Assembly (NCBI GenBank): GCA_020444505.1
Contig: JAHLKU010000003.1
Coordinates: 21,824 to 85,823, forward strand
Reading direction: 5' to 3'
Length of the DNA: 64,000 nt
From: Actinomycetota bacterium
Lineage (GTDB): Bacteria > Actinomycetota > Acidimicrobiia > Spongiisociales > UBA11373
The number at the start of each line of letters is the position of its first letter. The first letter of the stretch is position 1. Shown in pieces: positions 5,379 through 61,100 of the stretch. The position numbers and the translations under genes are program-made. Under the pieces are notes generated by a model. It did no database searches. It was not told where the DNA came from and worked only from the letters and a program-made list of their open reading frames with translations.

Positions 5379-6656
5379 ATGCGACAGCCGCTCCGTCTCG
5401 ACGTGCACACCGTCGAGATCGACCAGATCCGCTTCGGGGACCACACCGGGGTGGACGACGGAGCCCTCGTCGTCGACCGCGACGCCCTGGCGGCCCTGAT
5501 CCTCGAGGACCCCCGGATCGCCGGCGTGGACGTCCGGATCGCCCAGCCCGGCGACGACATCCGCATCATCGGGTGCCTGGACGCCGTCGAGCCCCGCTGC
5601 AAGGTGGGAGATGGGTCGGTGTTCCCCGGGTTCCTCGGCGGCATGGAGACCGTCGGGGAGGGCGAGACCCTCCGCCTCGGCGGGGTGGCGGTGCTGGCGT
5701 CGAGCCGGTACCCGCAGCCGTTCTCAGGGCTGCTCCAGGCCCGCGAGGCGGTGGTGGACATGCGGGGGCCCACCGCCAACCTCAGCCCCTTCGGGCGGAC
5801 GCTCAACCTGGTGCTGGCCTACACCCCCAACCCCGACATCGACAACGAGGACTACGACGACGCCATCCGCCGCAGCAACCTGAGGGTGGCCGAGCACCTG
5901 GCTACGCAGGCGCTCGACGCCCCCCGCGCCTCCACCACCACGTTCGACATCTCCGAGCAGGACCCCGACCTCCCCAACGTGGTGTACTTCTACCAGTTGC
6001 AGGGCCAGGGCCCCATGGCCGACACCTACCTCTACGGCCGGGTCATCCACAACCTGGTGCCCACGGTGATGCACCCCAACGAGGCGCTCGACGGTGCCAT
6101 CGTGTGCGGGGTGTACGTGTACGGGTGCTACAAGAACGTCACCTACCTGCACCAGAACAACCCGATCATCTGGGAGTTGCAGCGCCGCCACGGCAAGGAG
6201 TTGAACTTCGCCGGGGTCGTCATCAACCGGGGCCACAACTACACCCAGGAGGACAAGGAGCGGTCCTCGCGGTGGGCGGCCAAGCTGATCGAGTTCCTCG
6301 AAGCCGACGGCGCCGTGTTCACCGCCGAGGGCGGCGGCAACTCGGCGATCGACATGATGCTCGCGGTCCAGTACCTGGAGCAGGCCGGGGTGGAGACCGC
6401 GGTGGTGTCCTCGGAGGCCGCCGGCGAGGACGGCTACGACTTCCCGCTCTTCTACACCGTGCCCGAGGCGGACGCCATCGTCAGCGTCGGGTCGGAGGAC
6501 GAGGTGTTCGACATGCCGGAGGTGGCCGAGGTCATCGGCGGCGACACGCTGTTGGACGGCCAGCCCGCCGCCGGGCCGTACCGGCTCAAGATGTACTTCC
6601 AGTTCTGCGGCACCCAGCAGGTCGGCGGCAACGTGCTCGTGGGGAGGGTCCACTGA
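5379..6656 (+). CDS. grdE: glycine/sarcosine/betaine reductase component B proprotein (GrdE/GrdG/GrdI family; alpha/gamma subunits, pyruvoyl enzyme precursor)
   Basis: N-terminus MRQPLRLDVHTVEIDQIRFGD ... DVRIAQPGDDIRIIGCLDAVEPRCKV parallels GrdE family N-termini. GGGAGG RBS upstream of ATG 5379. The stop overlaps the grdB start (TGATG). Confidence 0.75.
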   Translation: MRQPLRLDVHTVEIDQIRFGDHTGVDDGALVVDRDALAALILEDPRIAGVDVRIAQPGDDIRIIGCLDAVEPRCKVGDGSVFPGFLGGMETVGEGETLRLGGVAVLASSRYPQPFSGLLQAREAVVDMRGPTANLSPFGRTLNLVLAYTPNPDIDNEDYDDAIRRSNLRVAEHLATQALDAPRASTTTFDISEQDPDLPNVVYFYQLQGQGPMADTYLYGRVIHNLVPTVMHPNEALDGAIVCGVYVYGCYKNVTYLHQNNPIIWELQRRHGKELNFAGVVINRGHNYTQEDKERSSRWAAKLIEFLEADGAVFTAEGGGNSAIDMMLAVQYLEQAGVETAVVSSEAAGEDGYDFPLFYTVPEADAIVSVGSEDEVFDMPEVAEVIGGDTLLDGQPAAGPYRLKMYFQFCGTQQVGGNVLVGRVH

Positions 6657-7966
6657 TGGTGAGGGTCGCCCACTACATCAACCAGTTCTTCGCCGGCATC
6701 GGCGGCGAAGACAAGGCCGACCACCCCTTCGAGGTGCGCGAGGGCGCCGTCGGGCCCGGCCGGGCCGTGGAGATGGCGGGCGGTGGCGACGTGGAGATCG
6801 TCCAGACCCTGGTCTGCGGCGACAACGCCTTCCACGCCGACACCGAGGGCACCCTGGCAGCGATCGAGGCGGCCCTCGCCGAGAGCAAGCCGGACCTGCT
6901 CATCGCCGGCCCCGGGTTCAACGCCGGGCGGTACGGCCTGGCGTGCGCCGCGGTGTGCGCCGTCGCCACCGAGAAGCTGGGCATCCCGGCGCTCACCGGC
7001 GTGTACGTCGACGCCCCCGCCGTGGACGTGTACCGCAGCCGGGTGGTGATGGTGCCGACCGGCGACAGCGCGGCGGGGATGAAGGACGCCGTCGAGGGCA
7101 TGCTCCGGGTGGGCCTGCGCCTGGCGGCAGGGGAGCCGCTCGGTCCCGCCGAGGAGGACGGGCGCATCCCCATGGGCTTCCGCAAGGCCGTGGTCACCGA
7201 GACCCCGGTGGCGGCCCGGGTCGTGGACATGCTGATGGCCAAGCTGCGGGGCGAGCCGTTCACCAGCGAGGTCGCCCTGCCCGAGCCGGCCGAGGCGGTG
7301 CCGCCGGCGCCGCCGGTGGCCGACCTGTCCGGGGCGGTGGTGGCGGTGGTCACCGACGGCGGCCTGGTGCCGGTGGGCAACCCCGACGGCATCGAGTCGT
7401 CGAGCGCCACGAAGTGGGCCCGCTACCCGATCGACGACCTGGTCCGCAACGACGACCCCTCGTTCATGTCCATCCACGCCGGGTACGACTCGCAGTGGGT
7501 GGACGCCGACCCCGACCGCCTGGTGCCCATCGACGCCCTGCTGGACCTGGAGGCCGAGGGCGTGATCAAGGAGGCGCACCCCTACTACTACGTCACCACC
7601 GGCACCGGCACCACCGTCACCCACGCCGAGCGGATGGGGGAGGAGATCGCCAAGCAGTTGATCTCCGACGGCGTCCACGCCGTGCTGGTCACCAGCACCT
7701 GAGGCACCTCCACGCGTTGCGGTGCAACGCTCGCAAAGATGATCGAGAAGGCCGGCATCCCGGCGGCACACCTGGCGGCGATGACGTCGATGGCCAAGAT
7801 CGCCGGGTCGAACCGGATCATCTCCTCCGGCCTCATCCCCCATCCGGTCGGCGACCCGTCGCGCTCTCCGGAGGAGGAGCTGAAGTGGCGCACCGGGCAG
7901 GTCCGCAAGGCCCTGAACGCCGCGGCGACGCCGCTCGACGAGGCCCTGATCTTCCCGGACTGGTAA
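6656..7966 (+). CDS. grdB: glycine/sarcosine/betaine reductase selenoprotein B (GrdB/GrdF/GrdH family) with in-frame UGA (Sec) at 7700..7702
   Basis: The ORF 6656..7702 ends in ...VLVTST-UGA. Read-through continues in frame (UGTSTRCGATLAKMIEKAGIPAAH ... PHPVGDPSRSPEEELKW...) into track ORF 7739..7966. The total is 436 codons, the typical GrdB size. The flanking motif STU-GT-x-TRCGAT matches the family Sec site. A SECIS-like hairpin lies at 7714..7730. Confidence 0.8.
7714..7730 (+). promoter_or_regulatory. SECIS-like stem-loop downstream of grdB UGA (GCGTTGC-GGU-GCAACGC)
   Basis: Perfect 7-bp inverted repeat beginning 11 nt after UGA 7700..7702, with GGUG in the apical region. Spacing and position match bacterial SECIS elements. 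Confidence 0.55.
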
Positions 7967-7982
7967 TCGAGTGAGGGACGCC

Positions 7983-9410
7983 ATGATCCAACCCGCCATC
8001 CTCCACACCGCCTACGCCCTGGCCCACGCGCCGGACTTCGTCCGCTACGGCTCCAAGCCCACCAGGGAGCTGCCGGCCAACCCCGGGCTGCTGGAGGAGA
8101 TGACGGCGGCGCTGCGGCCCTGGGACGAGGTGGTGGCCTACCCGCCGAACCAGGTGTTCATCGGCAACCTGAGCCCCGACGAGCTCGCCGCCACCCCGCG
8201 GCCCTGGTACGAGCACCTGGTCCCCGACGCCTCGCCCATCGGCCCGTGGGGGCGCATCGTCACCCAGGCGGCGCTCTACGGCCTCATGAAGCTGTGCGAC
8301 GACTTCGACCTCCTGACGATCACCGAGGCGGTCGCCGCCGAGGCCCGCGAGGAGCTCACCCGCTTCGAGCACCGGCGGGACCGCATCACCGGCGTCCCGC
8401 CGGAGGACCTGGCGGCGCTCATCGGCAAGCACGACGGCCTCACCCTGTACCACCGCGGCGAGGTCGCGGGGTTCCTGCGCACCGCCCACGAGCAGGACCC
8501 CTCGCTGGACGCCCATGTGCTGTTCGAGAACCTGGCCTGCAAGGCGACGGCGGTGCTGGCCGTCAACGACGCGTTCGATGGTGGCCCCATCGGCCCCGAA
8601 GACGTCGACTACCTGCTCAACACCGGCGAGGAGGCCGTCGGCGACCGCTACCAGCGCGGCGGCGGCAGCCTGTCCAAGGCCGTCGGCGAGGTGGTGGGGT
8701 GCCTCAACGCCACCGGGTCGGACATCAAGGCGTTCTGCTCGGCCCCGGTGCACGCCATCATCTCCGCCTCGGCGATGGTGGCCTCCGGCCTCCACAAGTA
8801 CGTGGTGGTGCTCGGGGGCGGGTCGCAGGCGAAGATGGGCATGAAGTTCCGGGCCCACCTCCGCAACGGCGTCCCGGTGATGGAGGACTGCCTGGCGTCG
8901 ATGGCGTTCGTCGTCGGGCCGGACGACGGCACCGGCATGCGGGTGCGGCTCGACGTCACCGGCAAGCATCCCATCGGCGCCGGGTCGTCGGCCCAGCACG
9001 TGTACCAGGCGCTGGTGGTGGAGCCGCTGGAGCGGGCCGGCATGACCATGACCGACGTGGACCGCTACGCCGTCGAGATGCACAACCCCGAGATCACCGA
9101 ACCGGGCGACAGCGGCGACGTCCCCAAGACCAACTACCGCACGCTGGCGGCGATGGCGGTGCTGCGGGGCGAGATCGAGCGGGACCAGATGGACGAGTTC
9201 TCCGCCACCCACGGCATGCCCGGGTTCTCGCCCACCCAGGGCCACATCCCCGCCGGGGTGCCGTTCCTCGGCCACGCCCTGGCGGCCATGCGGCGCGGCG
9301 AGATGGACAACGCGATGATCGTCGCCAAGGGCAGCCTGTTCCTCGGCCGGATGACGCAACTCGTCGACGGGGTGTCGTTCCTCGTCGAGGCGCCGTCCGA
9401 GCCGTCGTGA
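7983..9410 (+). CDS. grdC: glycine reductase complex component C, beta-subunit-like protein (GrdC family, thiolase/FabH-like fold)
   Basis: Motifs PNQVFIGNLSPDELA, QRGGGSLSKA, GCLNATGSDIKAFCSAPVHA, YAVEMHNPEITEP, GHIPAGVPF and GSLFLGRMTQLVDGVSF resemble the GrdC family. ATG 7983 is preceded by GAGGGA. The track start at 7971 is an upstream GTG. Confidence 0.65.
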   Translation: MIQPAILHTAYALAHAPDFVRYGSKPTRELPANPGLLEEMTAALRPWDEVVAYPPNQVFIGNLSPDELAATPRPWYEHLVPDASPIGPWGRIVTQAALYGLMKLCDDFDLLTITEAVAAEAREELTRFEHRRDRITGVPPEDLAALIGKHDGLTLYHRGEVAGFLRTAHEQDPSLDAHVLFENLACKATAVLAVNDAFDGGPIGPEDVDYLLNTGEEAVGDRYQRGGGSLSKAVGEVVGCLNATGSDIKAFCSAPVHAIISASAMVASGLHKYVVVLGGGSQAKMGMKFRAHLRNGVPVMEDCLASMAFVVGPDDGTGMRVRLDVTGKHPIGAGSSAQHVYQALVVEPLERAGMTMTDVDRYAVEMHNPEITEPGDSGDVPKTNYRTLAAMAVLRGEIERDQMDEFSATHGMPGFSPTQGHIPAGVPFLGHALAAMRRGEMDNAMIVAKGSLFLGRMTQLVDGVSFLVEAPSEPS

Positions 9411-9447: not shown

Positions 9448-9915
9448 ATGGATCTGAAGGGAAAGCGCATCGTCGCCATCGGCGAGCGCGAGGGCATCAA
9501 CGGCCCCAGCCTGAAGCTGCTCGCCGAGTCGGCGGGTGCGACGGTGGTCTTCAGCGTCACCCAGTGCTTCGTCTGAACGGCTGGTGGAGCCATGGACCTG
9601 GACGACCAGGCGAACGTGAGTCGCCTGGCCGAGGAGTCCGGGACCGACGACATGCTCGTCGTCCTGGGCCAGCCGGATCCCAACAGTGCGGGCCTCTTCG
9701 CAGAGACCGTCACTCGAGGCGATCCGACCTGGGCAGGTCCGTTGGCCGGAGTCCCGTTGGGGCTCCCCGTGTATCACATCCTCGAAGAGGAGATCAAGGA
9801 GTCGATGGACCCCGACCTGTATCAGGAGCACGTGGGCCTGATGGAGTTGTCGGCGGACGTCGACGAGATCGTGAAGTGGGTCAAGTTCTACCGCGAGGGC
9901 GGCGGCGAGGCCTGA
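9448..9915 (+). CDS. grdA: glycine/sarcosine/betaine reductase selenoprotein A (GrdA) with in-frame UGA (Sec) at 9574..9576
   Basis: Strong RBS GAAGGAGG 8 nt upstream of ATG 9448. The N-terminal ORF MDLKGKRIVAIGEREGINGP ... VVFSVTQCFV ends at UGA. It continues in frame as TAGGAMDLDDQ ... ETVTRGDPTWAGPLAGVPLGLPVYHILEEEIKE (track ORF 9592..9915). The CFV-U-TA(A/G)GAMDL motif is the canonical GrdA Sec site. Confidence 0.85.
9579..9591 (+). promoter_or_regulatory. candidate SECIS apical hairpin downstream of grdA UGA (GGCU-GGUGG-AGCC); uncertain
   Basis: Short 4-bp stem with a GGUGG loop starting 2 nt after the UGA. Alternative stems exist at 9597..9610 and 9606..9628. The exact SECIS fold cannot be resolved by eye. 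Confidence 0.25.
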
Positions 9916-19389: not shown

Positions 19390-20495
19390 CCGCCCGCACC
19401 GACACGCTCCTCGACCCCAGGGTCCGCAGCGGGCTCGAGATGGCCGGGCTGTACGTGCTCAGCCTCGCCGGCGCCCTGCTGCTGTCCGGTCTGCTGGTGG
19501 CCGCCACCGGCAACTCGGCGTTCAAGGTGTTCGGCGCCCTCCTCGACGGCGCCTTCCTCGCCCCCGGCCGCTGGGGCCAGACCCTGGTCGTGGCCGCCCC
19601 GATGCTGCTGGTGGCGCTCGGCATGGTGGTCGGCGTCAAGGCCGGCTTCTTCAACATCGGCCAGGAGGGACAGCTGCTCATCGGCGCCATGGCCATGGCA
19701 TGGGTGGGCACCCGGTGGCCCGGCCCCGGCCCGCTGCTGCTGTTCGTGGGGCTGGCACTGTCGATGGCATTCGGGGGCGGCTGGGCCGGCCTCGCCGCGC
19801 TGATGCGATTCCGGCGGGGGGTCCCGGAGGTGATCTCGACGCTGCTGCTGGTGTTCGTCGCCGCGCAGTTCAGCGGGTACGCCATCACCGCCGACTGGCT
19901 GTTGCGGGACCTGGACACCACCGGCCCGACCCGGTCGGTGAGCAGCGCCCCGCTGGACGAGGCCATCCGGCTGCCGGTGCTCCGCATCTTCGGCAACGAG
20001 TTCAACTGGGGCATCGTCATCGCCCTGGCGCTGGCGGTGCTGCTCGCCGTGGCGCTGGTGCGGTCGGTATGGGGGTTCCGGCTCCGCATGCTGGGCCACA
20101 ACCCGGCCGTCGCCCAGAAGGCAGGCGTCGCCTCCACCCGCATGGGCAGCCTCGCCCTGTTCCTGTCCGGCGGGCTCGCCGGGCTGGCCGGGGCGGTGAT
20201 GCTGGCCGGCGGCTCGTCGGGCTTCCGGGTCACGTCGGGGTTCTCGCAGAACTTCGGGTGGCAGGGCCTGCTGGTGGCCCTGCTGGCCCGCAGCAGCCCG
20301 ATCCTGGCCATCCCGATGGCCATCGTGTTCGCCGCGCTCCGCACCGGGAGCGGCTTCCTGGCCGCCACCGGGGTGGACCGCAAGATCGTCGACGTGGTGC
20401 AGGCGTTGCTGGTGTTGGCGCTGCTGATCCCACCGGCGGTCCAGTTCATCCGCGATCGCCGCAAGGCGCTGGCGATGGCCGGAGAGGAGGCATAG
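19386..20495 (+). CDS. ABC transporter permease (CUT2/BMP-system type)
   Basis: Polytopic membrane protein. The start overlaps the ATPase stop (ATGA). Confidence 0.8.
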   Translation: MTARTDTLLDPRVRSGLEMAGLYVLSLAGALLLSGLLVAATGNSAFKVFGALLDGAFLAPGRWGQTLVVAAPMLLVALGMVVGVKAGFFNIGQEGQLLIGAMAMAWVGTRWPGPGPLLLFVGLALSMAFGGGWAGLAALMRFRRGVPEVISTLLLVFVAAQFSGYAITADWLLRDLDTTGPTRSVSSAPLDEAIRLPVLRIFGNEFNWGIVIALALAVLLAVALVRSVWGFRLRMLGHNPAVAQKAGVASTRMGSLALFLSGGLAGLAGAVMLAGGSSGFRVTSGFSQNFGWQGLLVALLARSSPILAIPMAIVFAALRTGSGFLAATGVDRKIVDVVQALLVLALLIPPAVQFIRDRRKALAMAGEEA

Positions 20496-20496
20496 C

Positions 20497-21492
20497 GTGG
20501 GCGGGTTCTTCGAATCGCTGGGCGACCTCTTCCGGGCCCTGTTCGAGGTGTTCACCTCGGCGACCATGTACGGCAGCGCGGTGCGTCTCGGCGCCCTGCT
20601 GGCGTTCGCCGCGATCGGTGAGATGGTTGCCGAGAAGGCAGGCACCATCAACATCTCGGTGGAGGGCTCGCTGCTCGCCGGCGCCTTCACCGGCACGCTG
20701 GCCTACCACCAGACCGGCTCCACCGCCCTCGGCCTGCTGGCCGGGGTGGCCGGCGGGCTGATCATCTCCTGGATCCAGGCCAACATGAGCCATCGCCTCA
20801 CCGCCGACCAGTTCGTGGTGGGGCTCACCGCCAATGTGCTGGTGCTGGGCGTGGCCGGCTTCCTCAACGGCGTCATCGACCCGAAGGCGGCGAGCGCCGG
20901 GATCCTCGAGATCCCGCTGCTGTCGGACATCCCGTTGATCGGCCCCGCCCTGTTCGGGCAGCGCTGGCCGCTGTACCTGCTGTACCCGATCATCCCGCTG
21001 ACCTGGTGGCTGCTGTACCGCACCCGCTGGGGCCTGGAGGTGCGGGCGGTGGGGGAGAACCCGCAGGCCGCCGACGTGTCCGGCATCGACGTCAACAAGC
21101 GGCGGCGCCAGTCGATCTACTACGGCGGCATCCTCGCCGGCCTCGGCGGCGCGTTCATCGTGCTGGGCCCGATCGGGTCGTTCGAGACCGGCATCATCGG
21201 CGGGCGGGGCTTCATCGCCATCGCCGCCGTCTACTTCGGCGGATGGCGCCTCGGCGGCGTGGTGCTGGGGTCGTTCCTGTTCGGCCTGGCCGACGGGTTC
21301 CGCCTGGCGCTGCCGTCGGTGATCGCCAACGTGGACCCGCCGCTGGAGGGGGCGATGATCGACGGCCTCTCCAACGCCTCGTTCCTGGCGGCGCTGCCGT
21401 ACGTGCTGACCCTGCTGGTGATGTACCTGATCACCAAGGAGTTCCGCCAACCGGCGGCTCTGTCCCAGCCGTTCATCCGCGGGCTGCGGTAG
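20497..21492 (+). CDS. ABC transporter permease (second permease of the BMP system)
   Basis: Polytopic membrane protein with a GTG start 1 nt after the previous stop. Confidence 0.8.
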   Translation: MGGFFESLGDLFRALFEVFTSATMYGSAVRLGALLAFAAIGEMVAEKAGTINISVEGSLLAGAFTGTLAYHQTGSTALGLLAGVAGGLIISWIQANMSHRLTADQFVVGLTANVLVLGVAGFLNGVIDPKAASAGILEIPLLSDIPLIGPALFGQRWPLYLLYPIIPLTWWLLYRTRWGLEVRAVGENPQAADVSGIDVNKRRRQSIYYGGILAGLGGAFIVLGPIGSFETGIIGGRGFIAIAAVYFGGWRLGGVVLGSFLFGLADGFRLALPSVIANVDPPLEGAMIDGLSNASFLAALPYVLTLLVMYLITKEFRQPAALSQPFIRGLR

Positions 21493-21574
21493 GAATCCAC
21501 CGGGAGTCGGGGTGGTGCCCCTCCCCCGGGGGACGGTGCACCGGACGTGCGGGCCCGCCCCGGAGGGCGCGCCC

Positions 21575-22348
21575 TCACCCTTCCAGGGCCAGCAGGGCCG
21601 CCCCGTGGGCGCCGGTCAACTGGGGATGCTCGGGGACGATCACCTCGGTGTCGAGCGCCTCGCCGATCATCGCCCGGACCCCGGCGTTGCGGGCCACGCC
21701 GCCCGACATCATCAGCGGCGGTTCCCAGCCGACGGTGCGGACCATGGCGACCAGGCGCACCGTCAGCGAGCGGTGGAGGCCCTTGAGGATGGCGTCCACC
21801 TCGGCGCCGCGGGCGAGCAGCGAGATGATCTCCGACTCGGCGAAGACGGTGCAGGTGGAGGTGATCTGCTCCTCGCTGCCGGGGGCAGCCACCCGGCCGC
21901 CGAGGTCGGCGACGTCCAGGCCGAGGCGGCCGGCGGTGTACTCCAGGAACCGGCCGGTGCCGGCGGCGCACTTGTCGTTCATCACGAAGTCCGCCGGCCG
22001 GCCGTCGGGGCCGATGCGGATGACCTTGCTGTCCTGGCCGCCGATGTCCACCAGGGTCCCGGCCCGGCCCAGGTCGTCGAACACGCCCCTGGCGTGGCAC
22101 GTGATCTCGGTGACCCGCCGGTCGGCGCACTCCACCAGGCGGCGGCCGTAGCCGGTGGCGACGCAGCGGGCGCCGGGGGCCACGTCGTGGGCGGAGCGCA
22201 GGCCGTCGAGCATCGCCGCCGTCTGGTCGGCGATGCGGGGGAGGGCCTGCTCCAGGGCGGTGGCGACGACGGCGCCGGAGGGGTCCACCGCCACCGCCTT
22301 GCAGGTGGTGGACCCGGCGTCGATGCCGATGCCGGCGATGGCGGTCAC
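21575..22348 (-). CDS. 2-hydroxyacyl-CoA dehydratase activator ATPase (BadF/BadG/BcrA/BcrD/HgdC family)
   Basis: N-terminus [22 protein letters not shown] (ASKHA-fold phosphate-1 motif), then ...[14 protein letters not shown] ... [11 protein letters not shown] start overlapping the upstream stop (GTGA). The long N-terminal extension in track ORF 21575..23596 is spurious. Confidence 0.8.
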
Positions 22349-23655
22349 GACATCATCTCCACGAACGCCTCCAGGCGGGTGGTGGCCTGCTCCTCGGCGT
22401 AGGAGCGAGGGTCGTTGTGGTCGGCCTCCAGCAGCAGCGCAGGCACCCCCACGTCGGCGACCAGCCGGTCGCGCTGGTCGATCTGGCCCAGCGAGTACGG
22501 CTTGCACGACCGGTCGCTGTGCAGGATCACCCCGTCGATGGAGAACTCCTCCACCATGCGGCGCATCGCCGCCAGTTTGTGGCCGGTGGAGCGGTTGAGG
22601 ATCGGGTGCAGGTACACCCGGGCCATCGCCTCGAACGGCTCGGCCGGGTCCATCATCTCGGCCAGTTCGCCCCAGGCATGGGTGTAGGTGCTGGCCACCA
22701 CGTTCACGCCCCGCTCCGCCAGCCAGCGCGACAGCGGGCCGATGCGGTACCAGATGGGGAGGTTGTCCCACAGCACCCGGAGCCGCTCGTCCTTCACCGC
22801 CCCGACGCCCCGTGCGATGCGCTCGTCCAGTTCGGCCAGCAGCGACTCGTAGAAGGCCACGGTGGCCTGGTCGCCGCGCAGGTCGACGATCGGGCCCAGG
22901 TTCACGAACGAGTCGAAGGCGGTCAGCGGCGACGGGCGGTGGCGGGCCCGCTCCAGGATCTCCAGCCACAGGTCGCTGGCCTGCTTCGCCCTCGCCACCA
23001 CCGCCGTGAACCCGTCGAGCGAGAACTCCCGGCCGGCCGCCGCCTCGGCGGCCGGCACCATGTCCTCCAGCTGCCGCCGCACGAAGTCCACCTGGTGCGG
23101 CTCGGCGGCGTCGCCGTACAGGAACGGGGTGTCCACCAGCACCAGGGGGCAGCCGAAGTGGTCGGCGAGCACCCGGTACCAGTAGAGGACCGTCTGACAG
23201 ATGTTCGTGCAGCACAGCAGCAGGTCGGGCGGTGGGAGGCTTCCCACCGGCGTGTCGCCCGACAGCAGCGAGCCGAGGTCGGTGCGGGCGTACGAGCAGA
23301 GGTCGCGGGAGTACCCGGCGTCCTCGGCGGCCGACGACAGCGCCTCGGCCCGGCGGCGGGCCCCGCACAGCGCGGCGTGGTTCTCGGGGTAGACCAGGTG
23401 GTACCCGAGCGCCTTCAGGATCTCGGTGGGCGCCCCGCTCGTCACCCATGCCACCGGCCTGCTGCCCGACACCGAGCGGCCCGCCAGGTAGTGGCGGCTC
23501 ATCATCTCCCGCATGCGGATGGTGCTGCGCAACGGCGGGTTGAGGGGGCTGCCGGGGTCGGGCGCCCGCCGGTCGTAGCGGCGCTCGGCCCGCCACCGCT
23601 GCACCCGCAGGGCCGCCGACCCGGCGCCGAGGCGGAGGCGGTGGCCCATCGTCAT
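22345..23655 (-). CDS. 2-hydroxyacyl-CoA dehydratase family protein, subunit (HgdA/BcrB-like D-component)
   Basis: 436 aa with conserved Cys residues (e.g. ...[11 protein letters not shown]...) typical of the HgdAB/BcrBC [4Fe-4S] dehydratase family. Confidence 0.7.
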
Positions 23656-24728
23656 GCCAGCGTCTCCACGAACGCCTCGATGCGGGTGATCACCCGGTGC
23701 CCCAGCTCGCCGCCCAGCTCCACCTCGACGTGGGCCACGGGGTAGCCGGCGTCGCCCAGGTGGCGGCGCAGCAGCGGCACGTCGAACAGCTCCGGCTCGC
23801 AGAACGCCACGTCGTAGATCAGCATCCCCTTCGCCCCGGCGGCCGCCATCCGCCCGGCCAGCGCCGCGGCGCGCGCGGCGATCGGCGTGCCCCGGGTGGG
23901 GTCGGGCGGGGAGCCGAGCAGGCGGTCGGCCAGGCGCTCGATCGGGTCGGCGGCGTCCGACGGCGGGTAGAGGCGCCGCGCCCCGGCGGCCAGGTCGTCG
24001 GCCACCACCCGGGCCCCCGCCTCGGCCAGGTGGTCGAACAGGCTCATCGGCTCCGGCACGATGCCCGACAGCAACAGCCCGATCCCGCTCGGCGCCGTGC
24101 CGCGGGGCACGGCGGCCGCCGCCTCCACGAACTCCTCGGCGGCCAGGTACTCGCGGCTGCGGACCACCTCGTAGAACTCACGGTCGCCCACCGCCAGTGC
24201 CTCCCGGTCCCGGTAGAGGGCCGCCAGCGTCTCGTCGGCCGCCTCCTCGGCGGCGAGCGCATCCGCCCAGCCGGCATCGGTGGGCCGCCCCCCGGCGATC
24301 CCAGCCAGGCGGTCCGACAGCCGGCGCAACTCGGCGACCAGGTACTCGCGGTCGGTGGGCCGGCCCGCCCGGGGCAGGTACAGGGTCAGGACGTGCTGGG
24401 AGGGCTGCAGGAAGTCGCCGGCCACCGACCCCATGCCCTGCAGCGCGTCGCAGGTGTGGGGGACCAGCAGCACGCCGGCCCGCTCCAGGCCGCCCCGCAG
24501 CAGGAACGACGTCGCCCGCACCACGATGTCGCAGGTGTACGCCTGGAAGTGGCGGCCGCCCTCGTCCCGGGGCACGCCCGGCGGCCCCCACACCTCCACC
24601 GGGTGGAAGCCGTGTGCCCGCAGCAGGGCCCTCGGGTAGTGGTAGGGGAGCACGGCGGCGATCCGCTGCCCGCGCGCCTCGGCCCGGGCGATCGCCTCGC
24701 TGCGGCTGGGCCTGTGGGTGACGGTCAC
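23652..24728 (-). CDS. 2-hydroxyacyl-CoA dehydratase family protein, second subunit (HgdB-like)
   Basis: 358 aa, same family. The stop overlaps the start of the downstream subunit (ATGA). Together with 21575..22348 it forms a three-gene operon. Confidence 0.65.
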
Positions 24729-24847
24729 GGCCTCCCCTCGGTCGGCGCCATTCTGGCGCAGCGGGCGGCGCGGTGTGGGAGCGGGCGCATACGCGGGCGG
24801 CCTGCGGGGCGGGTAGGGTGCGGCCGAAACGACCAGGAGGGACGGCG

Positions 24848-25788
<941 letters not shown>

Positions 25789-25789
<1 letters not shown>

Positions 25790-26979
25790 TGCGCGCCGCC
25801 GTCCTGATCGCGCTCAAGGACCTGCGCCAGCGGGTGCGGGACAAGAGCTTCTTCCTGTGGGGGATCGTCGCCCCGGTCGGCCTGGCCGCCATCTTCAGCC
25901 TGCTGCTCGGCAGCGTGGCCGACGGCGACTCGATCAGCACCACCTTCGGGGCGGTGGACCTCGACGGCGGCGAGCAGGGCCGGGTGTTCGTCGAGGAGGT
26001 GCTGGGCGCCGTCGAGGACGCCGGGGTGGTGGACGGCATCGAGGTGTACGGCTCGCGGGACGCGGCCGAAGCGGAGGTGAGCACGGGCGCCCTGGATGCC
26101 GCGTTCGTGATCCCGGAGGGCTTCACCGCCGCCGTCGCCTCCGGCGGCGAGACCGCCATCGAGGTGATCGGCTACATCGACAGCCCCATCGGCACCGAGG
26201 TGGCCCGGTCGATCGCCACCCGGTACGTGGGCGAGGTCAACGGGGTCGGCGCCGCCATCGGCACGGTCGCCGCCCTCGAAGGGGCGATGCCGTCCCAGGC
26301 GGATCTCGACGAGATGGTGTCGGGGATCCTGCAGATCTCCTCGCCGCTGCGGGTGGGCACGATCGAGGCGGCCGACAAGGAACTCGAGTCGTCCACCTTC
26401 TACTCGGCGGCCATGGCGGTGATGTTCCTGTTCCTGATCGTGCAGTTCGGCGTGCTCGGCCTGCTGGAGGAGCGCGAGAACGGCACGCTCAACCGCCTCC
26501 TGGCCGCCCCGATGCGGCGGTTCTCGGTGGTGCTGGGCAAGGCGCTCACCTCGTTCACCATCGGCGTGCTGTCGATGACGGCGGTCATCGTCATCACCAC
26601 CTTCGCCCTCGGCGCCGACTGGGGCGACCCGATCGGCGTGGCGGTGCTGGTGCTGGCCGGGGTCATCGCCGCCCTCGGCCTGATGATGATGGTGGCGGCG
26701 TTCGCCAGGACGGCGGAGCAGGCGGCGAACCTGCAGGCGATCTTCGGGTTCCTGCTGGCCATGCTGGGCGGCGCGTTCTTCCCCGTGGCCGCGGCCGGCG
26801 GGCTCGTCGAGACGCTGAGCAAGATCACCCCGCACGCATGGTTCCTGCGGGGCCTCGGCGACCTCGCCGGCGGTGCCGGGCTCTCGGGCATCGTCGGGGC
26901 GCTGTGGCCGATCCTGCTGTTCGCCGCCGTCACCGGCGGTCTGGCGGCGATCCGCCTGCGGAAGGTGGTGGCGCCGTGA
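25789..26979 (+). CDS. ABC-2 type transporter permease
   Basis: N-terminal TM, large extracytoplasmic loop, C-terminal six-TM ABC-2 fold. ATGA overlap with the ATPase gene. Confidence 0.8.
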
Positions 26980-46379: not shown

Positions 46380-47573
46380 ATGAGGAAGATCTCGCTGCGG
46401 CTGGCGGCGATCGAGGAGTCGGCGACCCTGGCCATCACGGCCAAGGCGAAGGCGCTGCGGGCCGCCGGGGAGCCGGTGATCGGGTTCGGCGCCGGGGAGC
46501 CCGACTTCCCGACGCCGCCGCACGTGGTGGAGGCGGCGGTCGCCGCCTGCCGGATGCCGTCGGCGCACAAGTACAGCCCCGCCGCCGGCCTGGGGGACCT
46601 GCGGGAGGCGATCGCCGAGGTCACCGCCCGCGATGCCGGCTACGAGGCCGAAGCGTCCCAGGTGGTGGTGACCAACGGCGCCAAGTTCGCCATCTTCTCC
46701 GCCCTGGCCGCGGTCCTCGACCCGGGTGACGAGGTGCTCATGCCGGCGCCCTACTGGGTGACGTACCCGGAGGCGATCGCGCTGTCGGGCGGGACCATGG
46801 TGCCGGTGGCGACCGACGTGGCGTCGGGGTTCCGGGTCACGGTGGACCAACTGGAGGCGGCCAGGACCCCCAGGACCAAGGCGCTCATCTTCGTCTCGCC
46901 GTCCAATCCCACCGGGGCGGTCTACCCGCCGGAGCGGATCGCTGCGATCGGGCGGTGGGCCGCGGAGCACGGCATCTGGGTGATCACCGACGAGATCTAC
47001 CAGTACCTCGTGTACGGCGACACGCCGTTCGCCTCGATGCCGGTGGTGGCCCCCGAGGTGGCGAGCCACTGCCTGGTGGTCAACGGCGTCTCGAAGACGT
47101 ATGCGATGACCGGCTGGCGGGTGGGGTGGCTGATCGCCCCGCAGGACATCGCCACGGCGGTGACGCGCTTCCAGTCGCACGCCACCTCCAACGTCGACAA
47201 CATCGCCCAGCACGCCGCCCTCGCCGCCCTCCGCGGCGGGCTGGAGCCGGTGGAGGAGATGCGGCTGGCCTTTGACCGGCGCCGCAAGGTGATGCATCGC
47301 ATGTTGTCGGAGACGCCCGGTGTGGAGGTGATCGAGCCGGAGGGGGCGTTCTACGCCTTCCCCTCGGTGGGGGGCCTGCTGGGACGCGACCTGGGCGGGT
47401 CGGCCGCCGCGACCTCGATGGAGCTCGCCGGGCTGCTGCTGGAGCAGGAGAAGATCGCGGTGGTCCCCGGCGAGGCGTTCGGGGCGCCCGGCTACCTCCG
47501 CTTCTCGTTCGCCATGGGCGACGACGACATCGTGGAGGGCCTCGGGCGTCTGCAACGCCTGGCGGCGGGCTGA
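46380..47573 (+). CDS. pyridoxal-phosphate-dependent aminotransferase class I (aspartate aminotransferase-like)
   Basis: N-terminus [46 protein letters not shown] and PLP-lysine region ([13 protein letters not shown]) are typical of AspC-type enzymes. Confidence 0.85.
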
Positions 47574-49601: not shown

Positions 49602-50882
49602 GTGCTCCGCCTGCAGATCGCCATCGCCGCAGGGCGCCTCGCCGGCCGGGCCAGCCAGCTGCTCGGGAGGGGCGGCTCGGCGGTCCCCGGCCTCGTCGCC
49701 GAGCGGATCGACCCCCGCCTCATCGACCGGCTGGTGGCCTCCATCCCCCGGGTGGTGGTGGTCACCGGCACCAACGGCAAGACGACCACCACCAAGCTGC
49801 TGGTGGGGATGCTGGAGTCGGCCGGACGGCGGGTGGTCACCAACCCCACCGGCTCCAACCTGGCGCGCGGCGTCGCCACGCGGCTCATCGAGGTGGCACG
49901 GCGCGGCCGGGTGGACACCGACATCGCCGTCTTCGAGGTCGACGAGGCCGCGGTGCGCGCCCTCGGGCCCCGGTTGCGCCCCGCGGTGACCGTGGTCACC
50001 AACCTGGCCCGCGACCAGTTGGACCGCTACGGCGAACTGGACACCACCGCCGCCCACGTCCGCTCGGCGCTCGAGCACGCCGCGATCGCCGTGCTCAACG
50101 CCGACGACCCGATGGTCGCCGGGCTGGCCGGCACCGCCGGGGCCGACCGGTTCTTCGGGGGGTCCGACCCGGTACGGGCCCAGATGCCCGACGACCGCAC
50201 GCTCTACGGCGACGCCGGCGGGCCCCGCCCCGGGCCGGAGCCGTCGGTGCTGGTGCGCGCTGCCGAGCCGGCGGGGGAAGGGCAGCGGGCCGCCCTCACC
50301 GTGGACGGAGAGGACCTCGAGGTGCGGCTGCTCCTGCCCGGCGTGTACAACGCCTACAACGCCGCCGCCGCCGTCGCCGCCGCCACCGCCCTGGGTGTGG
50401 AGGCGGCCGTCGCCGCCGGGGCGGCGGCGGGCGTGGTGCCGGCGTGGGGCCGTGGACAGACCGTCGAGTACCGGGGCCGCAGGGTCCGGCTGCTGCTGGT
50501 GAAGAACCCGGCGGGCTTCAACCAGGCGATCCGCCTGCTGGCCGGAGAGGAGCCGGGTGCGCAGGTGATGATCTCGATCAACGACCACACCGCCGACGGG
50601 CGCGATGTGTCGTGGCTGTGGGACGCCCGGGTGGAGGACCTGGCCGGCACCGGCCACCGCTTCGTGACGTCGGGCACGAGGGCGCTCGACATGGCGGTGC
50701 GCCTCAAGTACGCCGGCGCCGCCGCCGAGTGGGCGGAGCCCGACCCGCGCACCGCCCTCGACCGGTTCGTCGACGGCGTCGCCGCAGGCGGCACGGCCAC
50801 CCTGGTGCCCACCTACACCGCGATGCTCGACCTGCTGCACCTGCTGCAGCCCGACACCCACCGGCGGGAGGCGTGGACGTGA
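49602..50882 (+). CDS. murT: lipid II isoglutaminyl synthase (glutamine-hydrolysing) subunit MurT (Mur ligase family)
   Basis: Mur-ligase central domain P-loop (VVVVTGTNGKTTTTKLL), MurT-specific DUF1727-like C-terminus, and adjacency to gatD. Confidence 0.8.
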   Translation: MLRLQIAIAAGRLAGRASQLLGRGGSAVPGLVAERIDPRLIDRLVASIPRVVVVTGTNGKTTTTKLLVGMLESAGRRVVTNPTGSNLARGVATRLIEVARRGRVDTDIAVFEVDEAAVRALGPRLRPAVTVVTNLARDQLDRYGELDTTAAHVRSALEHAAIAVLNADDPMVAGLAGTAGADRFFGGSDPVRAQMPDDRTLYGDAGGPRPGPEPSVLVRAAEPAGEGQRAALTVDGEDLEVRLLLPGVYNAYNAAAAVAAATALGVEAAVAAGAAAGVVPAWGRGQTVEYRGRRVRLLLVKNPAGFNQAIRLLAGEEPGAQVMISINDHTADGRDVSWLWDARVEDLAGTGHRFVTSGTRALDMAVRLKYAGAAAEWAEPDPRTALDRFVDGVAAGGTATLVPTYTAMLDLLHLLQPDTHRREAWT

Positions 50883-51592
50883 GGCTGGTGATCGCCCATC
50901 TGTACCCCGCCGAGATGAACATCTACGGCGACACCGGCAACGTCATCGCCCTCTCCCGGCGCCTGGAGTGGAGGGGCATCGACGCCGTGGTCGAGCGCAT
51001 CGCCGTGGGCGACCCGTACGACTTCACGGCGGCCGACGTGGTGGTGGCCGGCGGCGGTGAGGATCGCGCCCAGCTGGCGGTGGCCGCCGACCTGCAGCGG
51101 CGCGCCGGTGACATCCGCGAGGCGGTGGCGGCGGGGACGGTGTTCCTCACCATCTGCGGCACCTACCAGTTGTTCGGGCACCGCTTCGTCACCCACGACG
51201 GCGACGAGATGCCGGGCATCGGGGTGTTCGACCTGGAGACCCACGGTGGGGACGAGCGGATGATCGGCAACATCGTGCTCGACACCGAGTGGGGCCCCCT
51301 GGTGGGGTTCGAGAACCACAGCGGCAGGACCTTCCTGGGTGAGGGACAGCAACCGCTGGGGATGGTGCGCAAGGGGTACGGGAACAACGAGCGCGACTTC
51401 GACGAGGGAGCGGTCGCCGCCAACGCCTTCGGTTCGTACCTGCACGGGGCGCTGCTGCCCAAGAACCCGGCGTTCGCCGACGAACTGCTGCGGCGGGCGC
51501 TGGTGCAGCGCCACGGGGACGATGCCGTGCTGGGGCCGCTGGACGACGGGGTGGAGCGGGCGGCAGCCGACGCGGCGGCCACCCGGCCCTGA
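50879..51592 (+). CDS. gatD: lipid II isoglutaminyl synthase glutaminase subunit GatD (class I glutamine amidotransferase, CobQ-like)
   Basis: LVIAHLYPAEMNIYGDTGN ... TICGTYQLFG (catalytic Cys) ... HGALLPKNP. GTG overlaps the murT stop. Confidence 0.8.
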   Translation: MRLVIAHLYPAEMNIYGDTGNVIALSRRLEWRGIDAVVERIAVGDPYDFTAADVVVAGGGEDRAQLAVAADLQRRAGDIREAVAAGTVFLTICGTYQLFGHRFVTHDGDEMPGIGVFDLETHGGDERMIGNIVLDTEWGPLVGFENHSGRTFLGEGQQPLGMVRKGYGNNERDFDEGAVAANAFGSYLHGALLPKNPAFADELLRRALVQRHGDDAVLGPLDDGVERAAADAAATRP

Positions 51593-58180: not shown

Positions 58181-61100
58181 TCAGCGGGTGGTGAGCCCCT
58201 TGTAGGACTCGACGAACCCGGCGTCGAGCAAGGCCCTGCCCAGCGGGGTCTCGCGGGCGGGCGCCCCGTCGATGGCGGCGATGGTGTGCCGCCGGCCCCT
58301 CGCCCCGCCGCGTTGCAGGGCCGCCGCCAGCGCGGCGGCCACCGGTTCCGGCGAGGCGCCGTCGAACGTGGCCACGCGCCGCCCTCCCCGCTCCACGAAC
58401 GCGGCGAGGCGCCCGCCGTCGAGCACCACCAGCGCCCCGGCGGTGCGCGACGGACGCGCCCGGTCGCGCTCGGGCCACGGCAGCGCCGCGCCGTACGGGT
58501 TTGCGGGGTCGGTGGCGCCGAGCACCACGGCGGGGCCCGGGTCGGCGGGAGCCCGCAGCCGCTCTACCGCCCCGGCGAGGGCGAACTGCGAGCCGCCGAG
58601 GCCCTCGACGAAGTAGCCGCGGCGGACCCGCCCCGCCTCCTCCATGGCGCCGAACACCGGGTAGAGGCCGGCGAACCCGCCGGGGATCGCCTCGGAGAGC
58701 ACCGCATCGCGGACCACGATGCCGTGGCGCTCCAGCAACTGCTCGGCACGGGCTGCGGCGGCGGCGGTGGGGTCGGCGCGGCCCGGCAGGCCCTCTACGA
58801 GCCCCCAGCGGCCGCTGGCGGCGGGAGGCGCCGACGAGGAGGGCAGCGCCGGCCGCCCCGCCGTGCGGCGGTTGCGGCCCGTCAGGCGGGCGCGCAGCGG
58901 AGCGAGGGTGTCGTTGGTGACCTCGCCCGCCCACACCAGGTCCCACAGGGCATCGACGACGGCGTCGGGGTCGCCGCCGCCGGCCGCCTCGTACAGGTCG
59001 CCGAAGAACGATGCGCCCCGCCGCTCGAGGTGGGTGCGGAGGGCGTCGTGGAGCGGCCCGTCCGGCCGGTCCACGTCGAGCGGCCACGCCAGGGTGGCGG
59101 CATGGTCACGCAGGTACAGGGCCACCCGCCCGTCCCCGGCGCCCAGCGGGCCCCTGCCCACCCACACCACCTCGCCTGCTGCGGCGAGGGCGTCGAGCAT
59201 CGCCGGGGCGTAGTCGAGGCGGGCCGCCAGGGCCGACGACTCCAGCGTCGAAGCGGGCAGCGCCGCCCCCTGCAGGCGGCGGACGGCCCGCAGCAGGTCG
59301 TCGGTGGAGCCTCCGCCGTCGCCGATGCCGTGCCAGGAGACGCCGAAGCGGGCGAACGCCGCCGGGTCGGCCGGCTCCACCTCGCTCCGCAGCCGGGCCA
59401 GCGAACGGCGCCGCAGCCGCCGCAACACCCCGGCGTCCACCCACTCCCGGCCCGCCCCTCCCGGGCGGAAGGCGCCCCGGGAGACCCGCCCGGCGCGCTC
59501 CAGCGAGCTCAGGGCGCCGTCCACGACGGCGGGCGGGAGGCCGAGGGACGCGGCCGCCTCCCCGGCGGTGAACGGAGTGTGGGTACGGGCGAAGCGTCCC
59601 ACCACGTCGCCGAGCGGGTCGGCGGGGGAGTCCAGGAACGCATCGGGGACGCCCCGGGGAGGCGGGATGCCCAGGGCGTCGCGCAGCCGCCCGGCGTCCT
59701 CGACGGCGGCCCAGCGGAGTCCGTCACCGGCCCCGATCCGCATCACGCGGTGGCCCTGCTCCAGGGCCTCCAGTGCTTCGTCGAGCGCGCTCGGGTCGTC
59801 GGTGCGGGCGGCGAGGCCGGGGCGGTCGAGGGGGCCCAGGTCGCGGAGCAGGTCGTGGAGGCCGTCTACGCCGCGCGCGGCTCGCTCCGGTGCCAGGTGT
59901 TGCAGTTCGAGCTCTACCTCGGCGATGACGTCGGGCGACAGCAGCTCGCGCAGCTCGGGCTCGCCCAGCAGGTCCCGCAGCAGATCGCGGTCGATGGTGA
60001 GCGCCATGGCCCTCCGCTCGGCCGGAGGGGCGTCGTACTCGTACATGAACGAGGCGATGAAGTCGAAGGTGAGCGACGACGCGAACGGGCTGGAGGCCGG
60101 CAGGTCGACGGTGGTGAGCCGGATGCGGCGGGCGGAGATGTCGCCCAGCACCTCCCGCAGCGCGGGCAGGTCGAAGTGCTCCTGGAGCACCTCCCGGTAG
60201 GCCTCCAGCACGATGGGGAAGCCGGGATGGCGGCGGGCCACTTCCAGCAGCCCGGCCGCCTTGCGGCGCTGCAGCCACAGCGGGGTGCGCCGCCCCGGGC
60301 GCCGGCGGGGCAGCAGCAGGGAGCGGCCGGCCGCCTCCCGGAAGCGCGAGGCGAACAGGGCGGTGGCGCCCACTTCATCGACCACGAGGGGCTCCACCTC
60401 GTCGGGCTCGAGGGCGAGCACCTGCGGCGGCGGGGTCTCGTCGGCGTCGGGGAAGCGGAGGATGATGCCGTCGTCCGACCAGACCGCATCGGCCTCCATG
60501 CCGTGCTCGTCGCGGATGCGGCGGGCCGCCGCCATCGCCCACGGGGCGTGGACCCTGGCGCCGAACGGCGAGAGCAGCACCATTCGCCAGTCGCCGATCT
60601 CGTCGCGGAACCGCTCGACGACGACGGTGCGGTCGGTGGGCAGCGCCCCGGTGGCCTGCCGCTCGTCCTCCAGGTACTGGACCAGGTTGGCGGCGGCCCG
60701 CCGCTCGAGGCGGTACACCGTCTCGAGGCGCTCCCGGGCGTCGGCGGGGGGGAGCGCCCCGATCTCCCGGATGAACGCCCCCAGGGCGCGGCCGGTCTCC
60801 AGCGGGCGCCCCAGCCGGTCGCCGTGCCAGAAGGGCATGCGGGCGGCGGGCCGGCCCGGCGCCGGCGTGACGATGACCCGGTCGTGGCCGATCTCGTCGA
60901 TGCGCCAGGTGGTGGACCCGAGCACGAACACGTCGCCGACCCGGCTCTCGTACACCATCTCCTCGTCGAGTTCGCCCACGCGGCCACCCTCGGGGAGGGT
61001 GACGGTGAACAGGCCGCGGTCGGGGATGGTGCCCGGGTTGGTGACGGCGAGCAGCCGGGCGTTGGGCCGGGCCGACAGGGTGCCCGCCACCCGGTCCCAC

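Follow-up and report, generated by a model that had tools for sequence, protein, structure and literature searches.

In this study, we analysed a 64,000-nt stretch of Actinomycetota DNA (contig JAHLKU010000003.1 of GenBank assembly GCA_020444505.1, positions 21,824 to 85,823; hereafter the window) and found that a three-gene operon on its minus strand, 21575-24728, which codes for two paralogous subunits (beta and alpha) and an activase, probably specifies a two-component enzyme of the 2-hydroxyacyl-CoA dehydratase (HAD) type, which would be activated by ATP and work through a ketyl radical. An earlier note on this DNA, made from its letters, had recognised a dehydratase operon here and had read it, together with a nearby Grd selenoprotein system, as the mark of a Stickland-like amino-acid metabolism. 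The family-level recognition was correct, whereas the physiological story exceeds the evidence, as neither pathway context nor linkage to Grd was found. NCBI already has a generic annotation for alpha, whose sequence is that of MCB2222850.1, 'MAG: 2-hydroxyacyl-CoA dehydratase family protein [Actinobacteria bacterium]' (MAG, metagenome-assembled genome).

Pfam assigned HGD-D (PF06050) to both alpha (1.4e-71) and beta (7.9e-42) and BcrAD_BadFG to the activase (3.1e-53), and the activase passed the NCBIfam model TIGR00241, 'acyl-CoA dehydratase activase', with 229.9 bits against a cut-off of 125.4. With the NCBIfam models of characterised enzymes, alpha scored 265 bits for HadB (NF052455, cut-off 750), 174 for BcrB (TIGR02260, cut-off 486), 122 for BzdO (cut-off 449) and 67 for the double-cubane cluster protein, DCCP (NF040772, cut-off 350), and beta scored 80 for HadC (NF052456, cut-off 700), 56 for BzdN (cut-off 454), 48 for DCCP (NF040772, cut-off 350) and 48 for BcrC (cut-off 421). 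When PDB sequences were searched, the best match of each of the three proteins was a component of the HadBC-HadI system of Clostridioides difficile (3O3M/3O3N, 4EHT): HadB for alpha (3o3m_A, 227 bits; BzdO and MbdO 124, DCCP 41), HadC for beta (3o3m_B, 90 bits; next BzdN, 66) and HadI for the activase (4eht, 195 bits; MbdQ 172, HgdC 1hux 168, DCCP-R 146). The AlphaFold model of alpha (pLDDT 84, pTM 0.88) matched the fold of HadB (3o3m_A) with a TM-score of 0.89 and a root-mean-square deviation of 2.7 Å, those of BzdO and MbdO with 0.81-0.83 and that of DCCP with about 0.72; by itself, the modelled fold would separate HadB from BzdO/MbdO only weakly.

The cluster ligands and catalytic residues are more telling. 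In class I benzoyl-CoA reductase (BCR), BzdN holds an [8Fe-9S] double cubane on Cys36, Cys73, Cys100, Cys263, Cys293 and Cys327, and BzdO holds an aqua-[4Fe-4S] cluster on Cys95, Cys128 and Cys380, with Glu65 and His131 as acid/base residues (PMC11971306); the HAD design is an alpha-beta component D with one [4Fe-4S] cluster in each subunit and a separate activase (PMC11574389). HMMER alignments of the window proteins with HadB, HadC, BzdO and BzdN revealed that alpha Cys120, Cys153 and Cys384 align with BzdO Cys95, Cys128 and Cys380, and that alpha Glu91 occupies the position of BzdO Glu65 and HadB Glu55. The position of BzdO His131 is Val156 in alpha and Val in HadB too. Beta Cys66, Cys93 and Cys310 align with the proximal BzdN ligands Cys73, Cys100 and Cys327, and likewise with the ligands of HadC; beta has Pro, Ala and Asp at the distal BzdN positions Cys36, Cys263 and Cys293, and the six-Cys pattern of the [8Fe-9S] double cubane is absent. 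Beta has three cysteines in total, every one of which is invariant in 71 members of the clade described below. Also invariant in this clade are alpha Cys97, Cys120, Cys149, Cys153, Cys384 and Glu91 (65 members) and, in the activase, Cys84, Cys127 and Cys166, the motifs [11 protein letters not shown] and STCxVFAESE, and the ASKHA motifs including DxGGQD (66 members). Alpha Cys120/153/384 are the predicted substrate-binding [4Fe-4S] site with a free iron, beta Cys66/93/310 the predicted electron-storing [4Fe-4S] site and activase Cys127 and Cys166 the putative cluster-bridging residues; alpha and beta would form a heterodimer.

The features expected of a HAD were found at sequence level: two adjacent paralogous HGD-D (PF06050/IPR010327) subunits, a pair kept in all 85 related loci analysed; one three-Cys [4Fe-4S] site per subunit; and a single activase of the HgdC/HadI type (TIGR00241/IPR008275) with two bridging Cys and the ASKHA motifs. 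The two different ATPase subunits of class I BCRs (BcrA/D, BzdP/Q) have no counterpart in the operon, which contains one activase gene, and the single-gene, six-Cys homodimer of DCCP differs from the two distinct genes with a three-Cys site each that are present here. Because of the three-Cys sites, the absence of the distal Cys, the Val in place of His131 and the single activase gene, the operon falls on the HAD side of the superfamily and not on that of class I BCR or DCCP. The assignment to Hgd/Had, Bcr or another type, which the earlier note had put forward as a check, thus came out as a dehydratase architecture, with HadB, HadC and HadI as the best PDB matches and with the double-cubane Cys and the BCR His absent.

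These same data bear on the possibility that the operon encodes a reductase that depends on ATP, like BCR or DCCP, and would deliver electrons stoichiometrically to a small molecule or to an acyl-CoA that is aromatic or for other reasons difficult to reduce. The enzymes belong to one superfamily, the BcrB and BzdO models do find alpha (174 and 122 bits) and the modelled alpha matches BzdO/MbdO with TM-scores of 0.81-0.83. A reductase is also implied by the automatic label 'bcr-type benzoyl-CoA reductase subunit B' that many clade members carry at JGI. This label is contradicted by the Cys pattern, by the residue at the His131 position, by the single ATPase gene and by the model cut-offs: the BCR models all score far below them (174/486, 122/449, 56/454 and 48/421), and three of the six [8Fe-9S] Cys are missing in beta. 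Taking this together with the neighbouring genes considered below, we regard a reductase as quite improbable.

Given the family mechanism of activation, ketyl formation and electron reuse (PMC11574389), we propose that the activase works as a homodimer, in which a [4Fe-4S] cluster would be held between the monomers by Cys127 and Cys166 of both. The dimer would be reduced by ferredoxin or flavodoxin and, upon ATP hydrolysis, would inject an electron into the cluster of beta (Cys66/93/310), from which the electron would move on to that of alpha (Cys120/153/384), where the acyl-CoA would be bound at the fourth, open iron. One-electron reduction of the thioester would give a ketyl radical, with expulsion of the 2-hydroxyl group and acidification of the 3-proton, and Glu91 is the likely base that takes this proton. 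The product would be a 2-enoyl-CoA and the electron would be recycled, so that ATP would be spent on activation alone. As judged from the alignments, every ligand and motif that this mechanism needs is present and conserved, and the features of BCR and DCCP are absent; the dehydration chemistry, the electron donor and the direction of the reaction are a proposal based on homology.

Of the characterised systems, HadBC, an (R)-2-hydroxyisocaproyl-CoA dehydratase, with its activator HadI is the closest. It shares with the operon the HGD-D alpha-beta pair, the three-Cys [4Fe-4S] site in each subunit, the Glu55 equivalent, the Val at the BzdO-His position and a single activase of the homodimer type with two cluster Cys. 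However, alpha is only about 30% identical to HadB in the structural alignment and has, in addition, an invariant Cys97 and a conserved N-terminal helix of about 37 aa, and its relatives live in uncultured Actinomycetota, Myxococcota, Chloroflexota and the like, not in clostridia. The gene context differs as well: there is no hadA-type CoA-transferase, ldhA, acdB or etfBA as in the had operon, and an AMP-forming ligase is found in relatives instead. The N-terminal extension of about 37 aa, in the region of alpha residues 1-47 (23515-23655, minus strand), is specific to the clade and absent from HadB. Its residues 3-29 are predicted as a long helix (pLDDT about 90) in which G12 and R20 are invariant, and this helix might be in contact with beta or the activase.

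The design of a component D and a component A is shared with the (R)-2-hydroxyglutaryl-CoA dehydratase HgdAB and with HgdC (1HUX) of Acidaminococcus fermentans. This comparison rests on the activase, which aligns with HgdC over its full length (168 bits); Cys127 and Cys166 bear the same numbers as the cluster ligands of HgdC. In contrast to the hgd locus, no glutaconate CoA-transferase (gctAB) or glutaconyl-CoA decarboxylase is found in the context of the operon. The class I BCRs BzdNOPQ and MbdONPQ (8S02, 9G87, 9GAI) have in common with it the superfamily, the fold, the alpha ligands, the Glu65 equivalent and the ATP-driven injection of electrons through an ASKHA ATPase, but they differ by the double cubane, the His131 that is Val in alpha, the two ATPase genes instead of one and models that the window proteins score below cut-off. 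DCCP with DCCP-R of Carboxydothermus hydrogenoformans (6ENO, 7YYL) is a distant homolog that follows the same logic of an ATP-driven reductase, but it is a single-gene homodimer with six Cys per monomer, whereas the window system would be a heterodimer with a three-Cys site per subunit, and the alpha model has a TM-score of about 0.72 with it.

By sequence, the operon belongs to a large orphan clade. The identity of clade members to alpha ranges from 57 to 87% across phyla, and the hallmarks of the clade are the N-terminal helix of alpha and the extra invariant Cys97 and Cys149. Among the 120 best homologs listed, which were 61-87% identical to alpha, were proteins from Acidimicrobiia, Actinomycetota, Myxococcales/Deltaproteobacteria, Nitrospirae, Acidobacteria and Nanopelagicales MAGs. 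A GTDB scan with one genome per species revealed relatives in at least 552 genomes. The best 80 of these, all MAGs and 57-78% identical, were from Actinomycetota, Myxococcota, Binatia, Anaerolineae/Thermoflexales, WOR-3, Calditrichaceae, Melioribacteraceae, Desulfurellales, Schekmanbacteria and Acidobacteriota. About three sequences (60%, 51% and 48% identity; 583-434 bits) represented the clade in a library clustered at 50% identity, and a continuum followed from 43% identity and 361 bits downwards. A literature search on the clade, on HADs of Acidimicrobiia or Actinobacteria and on ligase-linked HADs found nothing specific.

Such a clade, tight across phyla and separate from everything characterised, raises the possibility that the HAD architecture acts on something other than a 2-hydroxyacyl-CoA by a different ketyl-type reaction, for instance a radical isomerisation or the elimination of some other alpha-leaving group; this would be a reaction class new to the family. 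Its own invariants (the N-terminal helix, Cys97 and Cys149), hosts that are not known for amino-acid fermentation (Myxococcota, Binatia, Acidimicrobiia) and an otherwise uninformative genomic context are consistent with this. However, all of the HadB hallmarks are kept, namely the three-Cys open-iron site, the Glu and the Val at the BzdO-His position, and nothing positive speaks for another chemistry. A new substrate is more parsimonious than a new reaction, and we consider a different reaction unlikely.

To characterise the gene neighbourhoods, six-frame open reading frames (ORFs) from 85 loci, with about 10 kb on either side of the module, were clustered, and Pfam was run on the 121 immediate neighbours. 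Beta and alpha were present in all 85 loci and the activase in 81, the remainder being mostly contig ends; the order beta-alpha-activase was kept in 81-85 of the 85. The activase gene was single in 81 loci, and two activase-like genes were found solely in L086, from a MAG labelled Parcubacteria group with an alpha that is 58% identical. These two tandem ORFs of 284 and 265 aa (L086, 7044-8692) lie upstream of beta and not downstream of alpha, a BCR-like arrangement seen in one locus of 85. Across phyla, a single family recurred, made up of proteins of about 557 aa with the Pfam domains AMP-binding and AMP-binding_C; it directly adjoins the module in 17-18 loci and lies within 10 kb of it in 22-23. 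It is encoded either upstream and co-directionally, often overlapping beta, or downstream and convergently. In the Pfam census, AMP-binding occurred in 17 of the neighbours and every other family in three at most. The best NCBIfam matches of this ligase were long-chain-fatty-acid--CoA ligases (up to 528 bits) and the dicarboxylate ligase PimA, not aromatic-acid ligases, and with the subfamily model PRK06187 it scored 440-447 bits, slightly below the cut-off of 476.

The reductase reading meets these neighbours on both sides. CoA ligases are typical partners in anaerobic aromatic-acid pathways, and the activase-like pair of L086 follows the BCR fashion; yet the ligase is FadD/PimA-like and unlike benzoate-CoA ligase, and no dienoyl-CoA hydratase, dehydrogenase or ring-hydrolase genes recurred among the immediate neighbours. 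Returning to a dehydratase, because relatives in the clade often share an operon with this FadD-like, AMP-forming ligase, the substrate is most likely an aliphatic 2-hydroxy acid that would be activated by a ligase and not by a CoA-transferase. The two ATP equivalents that an AMP-forming ligase costs are more easily reconciled with an entry reaction of catabolism than with a redox branch of a fermentation, and this points to a role of the enzyme in feeding beta-oxidation and not in an energy-conserving, clostridial Stickland branch. It is possible, and we put this forward only tentatively, that the beta-alpha-activase module with or without the ligase is a functionally distinct, ligase-fed class of HADs that lies outside the four known substrates and has spread horizontally. 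Its substrates might be, for example, medium-chain, long-chain or dicarboxylic 2-hydroxy acids, and its hosts would be lineages of soil, sediment and groundwater (Actinomycetota/Acidimicrobiia, Myxococcota, Binatia, Chloroflexota, WOR-3 and Calditrichota) that are not amino-acid fermenters.

Several observations weigh against this interpretation as a ligase-linked dehydratase. Neither alpha nor beta reached an NCBIfam equivalog cut-off, and by sequence the operon is no ortholog of any characterised dehydratase. The fold likeness to BzdO/MbdO is close behind that to HadB (0.81-0.83 versus 0.89), and HadB is the 'best' match in part because few dehydratase models exist. The next relatives of the clade, at 40-51% identity, are as remote from HadB (234-310 bits) as the window protein is, so the whole region of sequence is uncharacterised. 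As to the ligase, its direct adjacency is restricted to a subclade of at most 62% identity. In the Actinomycetota/Myxococcota subclade of the window the module stands alone, with the ligase 5.6-7.8 kb off in four loci; the Actinomycetota loci are without it save L035, where it is 6.8 kb away, and a tblastn search with the ligase gave no match in the window. Beside the operon, moreover, neither ferredoxin nor flavodoxin genes were found, nor any for an enzyme that would consume enoyl-CoA.

The three genes were resolved by a frame plot of the GC content at third codon positions together with a gene call by codon-position likelihood, since the GC content of the window, 70-78% and mostly about 73% (the earlier note had given about 70% for the genome), fills raw ORF lists with shadow frames. 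Frame plot and gene call agree exactly with the coordinates that the earlier note had given for two subunits and an ATP-dependent activator (Table 1). The genes follow one another as beta-alpha-activase in a compact operon with plus-strand genes on either side: a convergent Bmp-type ABC importer operon, which ends at 21492, downstream and a divergent DrrA/ABC-2 exporter operon, which starts at 24848, upstream. The two overlaps by which the genes had been said to be chained can be read in the sequence, each of 4 nt: ATGA at the beta/alpha junction (gcATGAcg) and GTGA at the alpha/activase junction (tcGTGAcc). That expression is stoichiometric had been inferred from these overlaps; in characterised systems, catalytic amounts of the activase suffice (PMC11574389). 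The divergent intergenic region is presumably the site of the operon promoter. A scan around the operon found no match to the sigma-70 consensus and no terminator, the sole hairpin being at chance level and inside a gene, and no Rfam element or riboswitch was found in 20000-26500.

Table 1. Coordinates of the dehydratase-type operon, its upstream intergenic region and the Grd genes in the window
Feature	Position	Strand	Description
GrdE-like	5403-6656	+	From the Gly_reductase/GRDB/GRDA Pfam survey
GrdB	6656-7966	+	In-frame TGA (selenocysteine) at 7700-7702, motif VTST*GTSTRCG
GrdC-like	7971-9410	+	DUF5940 + ACP_syn_III
GrdA	9448-9915	+	In-frame TGA (selenocysteine) at 9574-9576, motif CFV*TAGG
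Activase	21575-22348	-	257 aa, GTG start, HadI/HgdC-type ASKHA ATPase
Alpha subunit	22345-23655	-	436 aa, HadB/BzdO-type catalytic HGD-D paralog
Beta subunit	23652-24728	-	358 aa, HadC/BzdN-type HGD-D paralog, GTG start
Divergent intergenic region	24729-24847	.	119 bp between the operon and the DrrA-type ABC gene; GGGGAGG immediately 5' of the beta GTG

Textbooks treat HAD-type enzymes as a mark of amino-acid fermentation by clostridia. In the had, fld, hgd and lcd loci, a CoA-transferase is encoded within the operon, by which the energy of the thioester is conserved, and an (R)-2-hydroxyacid dehydrogenase, often with an acyl-CoA dehydrogenase and an electron-transferring flavoprotein (ETF), is encoded in or near it. 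The operon could be imagined as the reductive-branch dehydratase of a Stickland-like fermentation that works with the nearby Grd system, by a route from an amino-acid-derived 2-oxo acid to the 2-hydroxy acid, then through a CoA-transferase to the thioester and the enoyl-CoA, which an acyl-CoA dehydrogenase with ETF would reduce. The Grd system itself is real: Pfam recognised Gly_reductase, GRDB and GRDA, and GrdA and GrdB carry canonical selenocysteine motifs. A HAD-type enzyme and selenocysteine-containing GrdA and GrdB therefore do lie within one 64-kb window, which also encodes a class I/II aminotransferase (46380-47573), and HAD and Grd are both typical of anaerobes (PMC11574389).

However, the operon is transcribed separately from Grd, on the opposite strand, as the earlier note had stated; its distance of about 12 kb is 11.7 kb when measured from the end of GrdA to 21575, and the ABC importer operon lies between. 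The genes that run co-directionally from Grd to 21492 encode an aldehyde dehydrogenase, a zinc-dependent alcohol dehydrogenase, an FGGY kinase, a DeoC aldolase, a flavin reductase, a glyoxalase, a GntR regulator and the Bmp-type ABC importer, and this string of catabolic and ABC genes is unusual company for Grd. The earlier note had suggested a search for a cognate CoA-transferase and 2-hydroxyacid dehydrogenase and for anaerobic markers such as pyruvate:ferredoxin oxidoreductase (PFOR) and hydrogenases. A Pfam survey that took in most called genes of the window revealed none of these, D-2-hydroxyacid dehydrogenases included, and neither acyl-CoA dehydrogenase nor ETF; genes for GrdD and thioredoxin did not turn up either. 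CoA-transferase, 2-hydroxyacid dehydrogenase and the other enzymes of the route were not among the recurrent families of the 121 immediate neighbours in related loci. In none of the related loci did a Grd homolog turn up within about 10 kb of the module, which makes the nearness of Grd a peculiarity of this genome. Where the module has a partner, this is an ATP-consuming ligase, which would undo the energy economy of the clostridial pathways. With no equivalog reached, no pathway genes in the window and no Grd linkage in relatives, the Stickland role that had been claimed for the operon is unsupported, and we judge it to be unlikely. Nevertheless, the operon and the selenocysteine-containing Grd together argue for a metabolism that is at least facultatively anoxic and of low potential, with no pathway defined; two oxygen-sensitive low-potential systems in one place are a fair hint of anoxic capability. 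Elsewhere in the window, a MurT/GatD pair for peptidoglycan amidation (49602-51592, plus strand) and an Lhr-type large helicase (58181-62560, minus strand) are typical of Gram-positives and Actinomycetota and thus fit the taxonomic label of the MAG.

Several other neighbours of the module were considered as partners and rejected. A thiamine pyrophosphate (TPP) enzyme, a short-chain dehydrogenase/reductase, an epimerase, a LuxR regulator and a sulfatase were limited to closely related Myxococcota MAGs. Phosphoenolpyruvate (PEP) carboxylase, an ACT protein, ROK, a sugar ABC system and FGGY occurred in three close Actinomycetota genomes only, and their flanking proteins are 74-89% identical, which indicates lineage synteny and not a functional link. 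The genes that flank the operon in the window (Bmp-type ABC, DrrA/ABC-2, FGGY, DeoC) did not recur beside the module. DrrA-type ATPase matches were found more than 7 kb from it in L070, L073 and L081 at 30-49% identity, as expected of a generic ABC domain, and the other flank genes gave no match in the related loci.

In the Nanopelagicales MAG of L008 (12350-21344), the gene immediately downstream of the module is that of PEP carboxylase, and 4 kb beyond lies that of PFOR, which could supply reduced ferredoxin. PEP carboxylase and an ACT-domain protein are also encoded near the module in L006 and L007; since the three are close relatives, this linkage may be synteny only. In the Myxococcota MAGs L017-L025, the divergent gene of the TPP-dependent enzyme (583 aa; in L017 at 6925-8673, minus strand) adjoins the module. 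Its best NCBIfam match was the acetolactate synthase large subunit (310 bits), with oxalyl-CoA decarboxylase at 223 bits, and it is a possible partner of the 2-hydroxyacyl-CoA lyase type, seen only in closely related genomes. In the Anaerolineae/Thermoflexales MAGs L038 (5246-7106), L054 and L061, a conserved 220-aa ORF without a Pfam match follows alpha, with a GT4 glycosyltransferase after it in L038 and L061; an activase was found in none of the three loci.

In summary, uncultured Actinomycetota, Myxococcota, Chloroflexota and further lineages from the environment commonly carry a tightly conserved, uncharacterised branch of the HADs; there, the module is self-contained and has an acyl-CoA ligase as its sole recurrent partner. 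The most useful outcome of this work is this clade-wide ligase partner, together with the risk that too much is read into 'hgd' and 'bcr' labels in MAGs: when metabolism is reconstructed from MAGs, neither Stickland fermentation nor aromatic degradation should be concluded from a name like 'hgdA' or 'bcr-type benzoyl-CoA reductase subunit B'. Relatives with a linked ligase open a route to the substrate, because the specificity of the ligase can be screened first. If a ligase-fed class of HADs does exist, it would provide an oxygen-independent alternative to the alpha-oxidation of 2-hydroxy acids.

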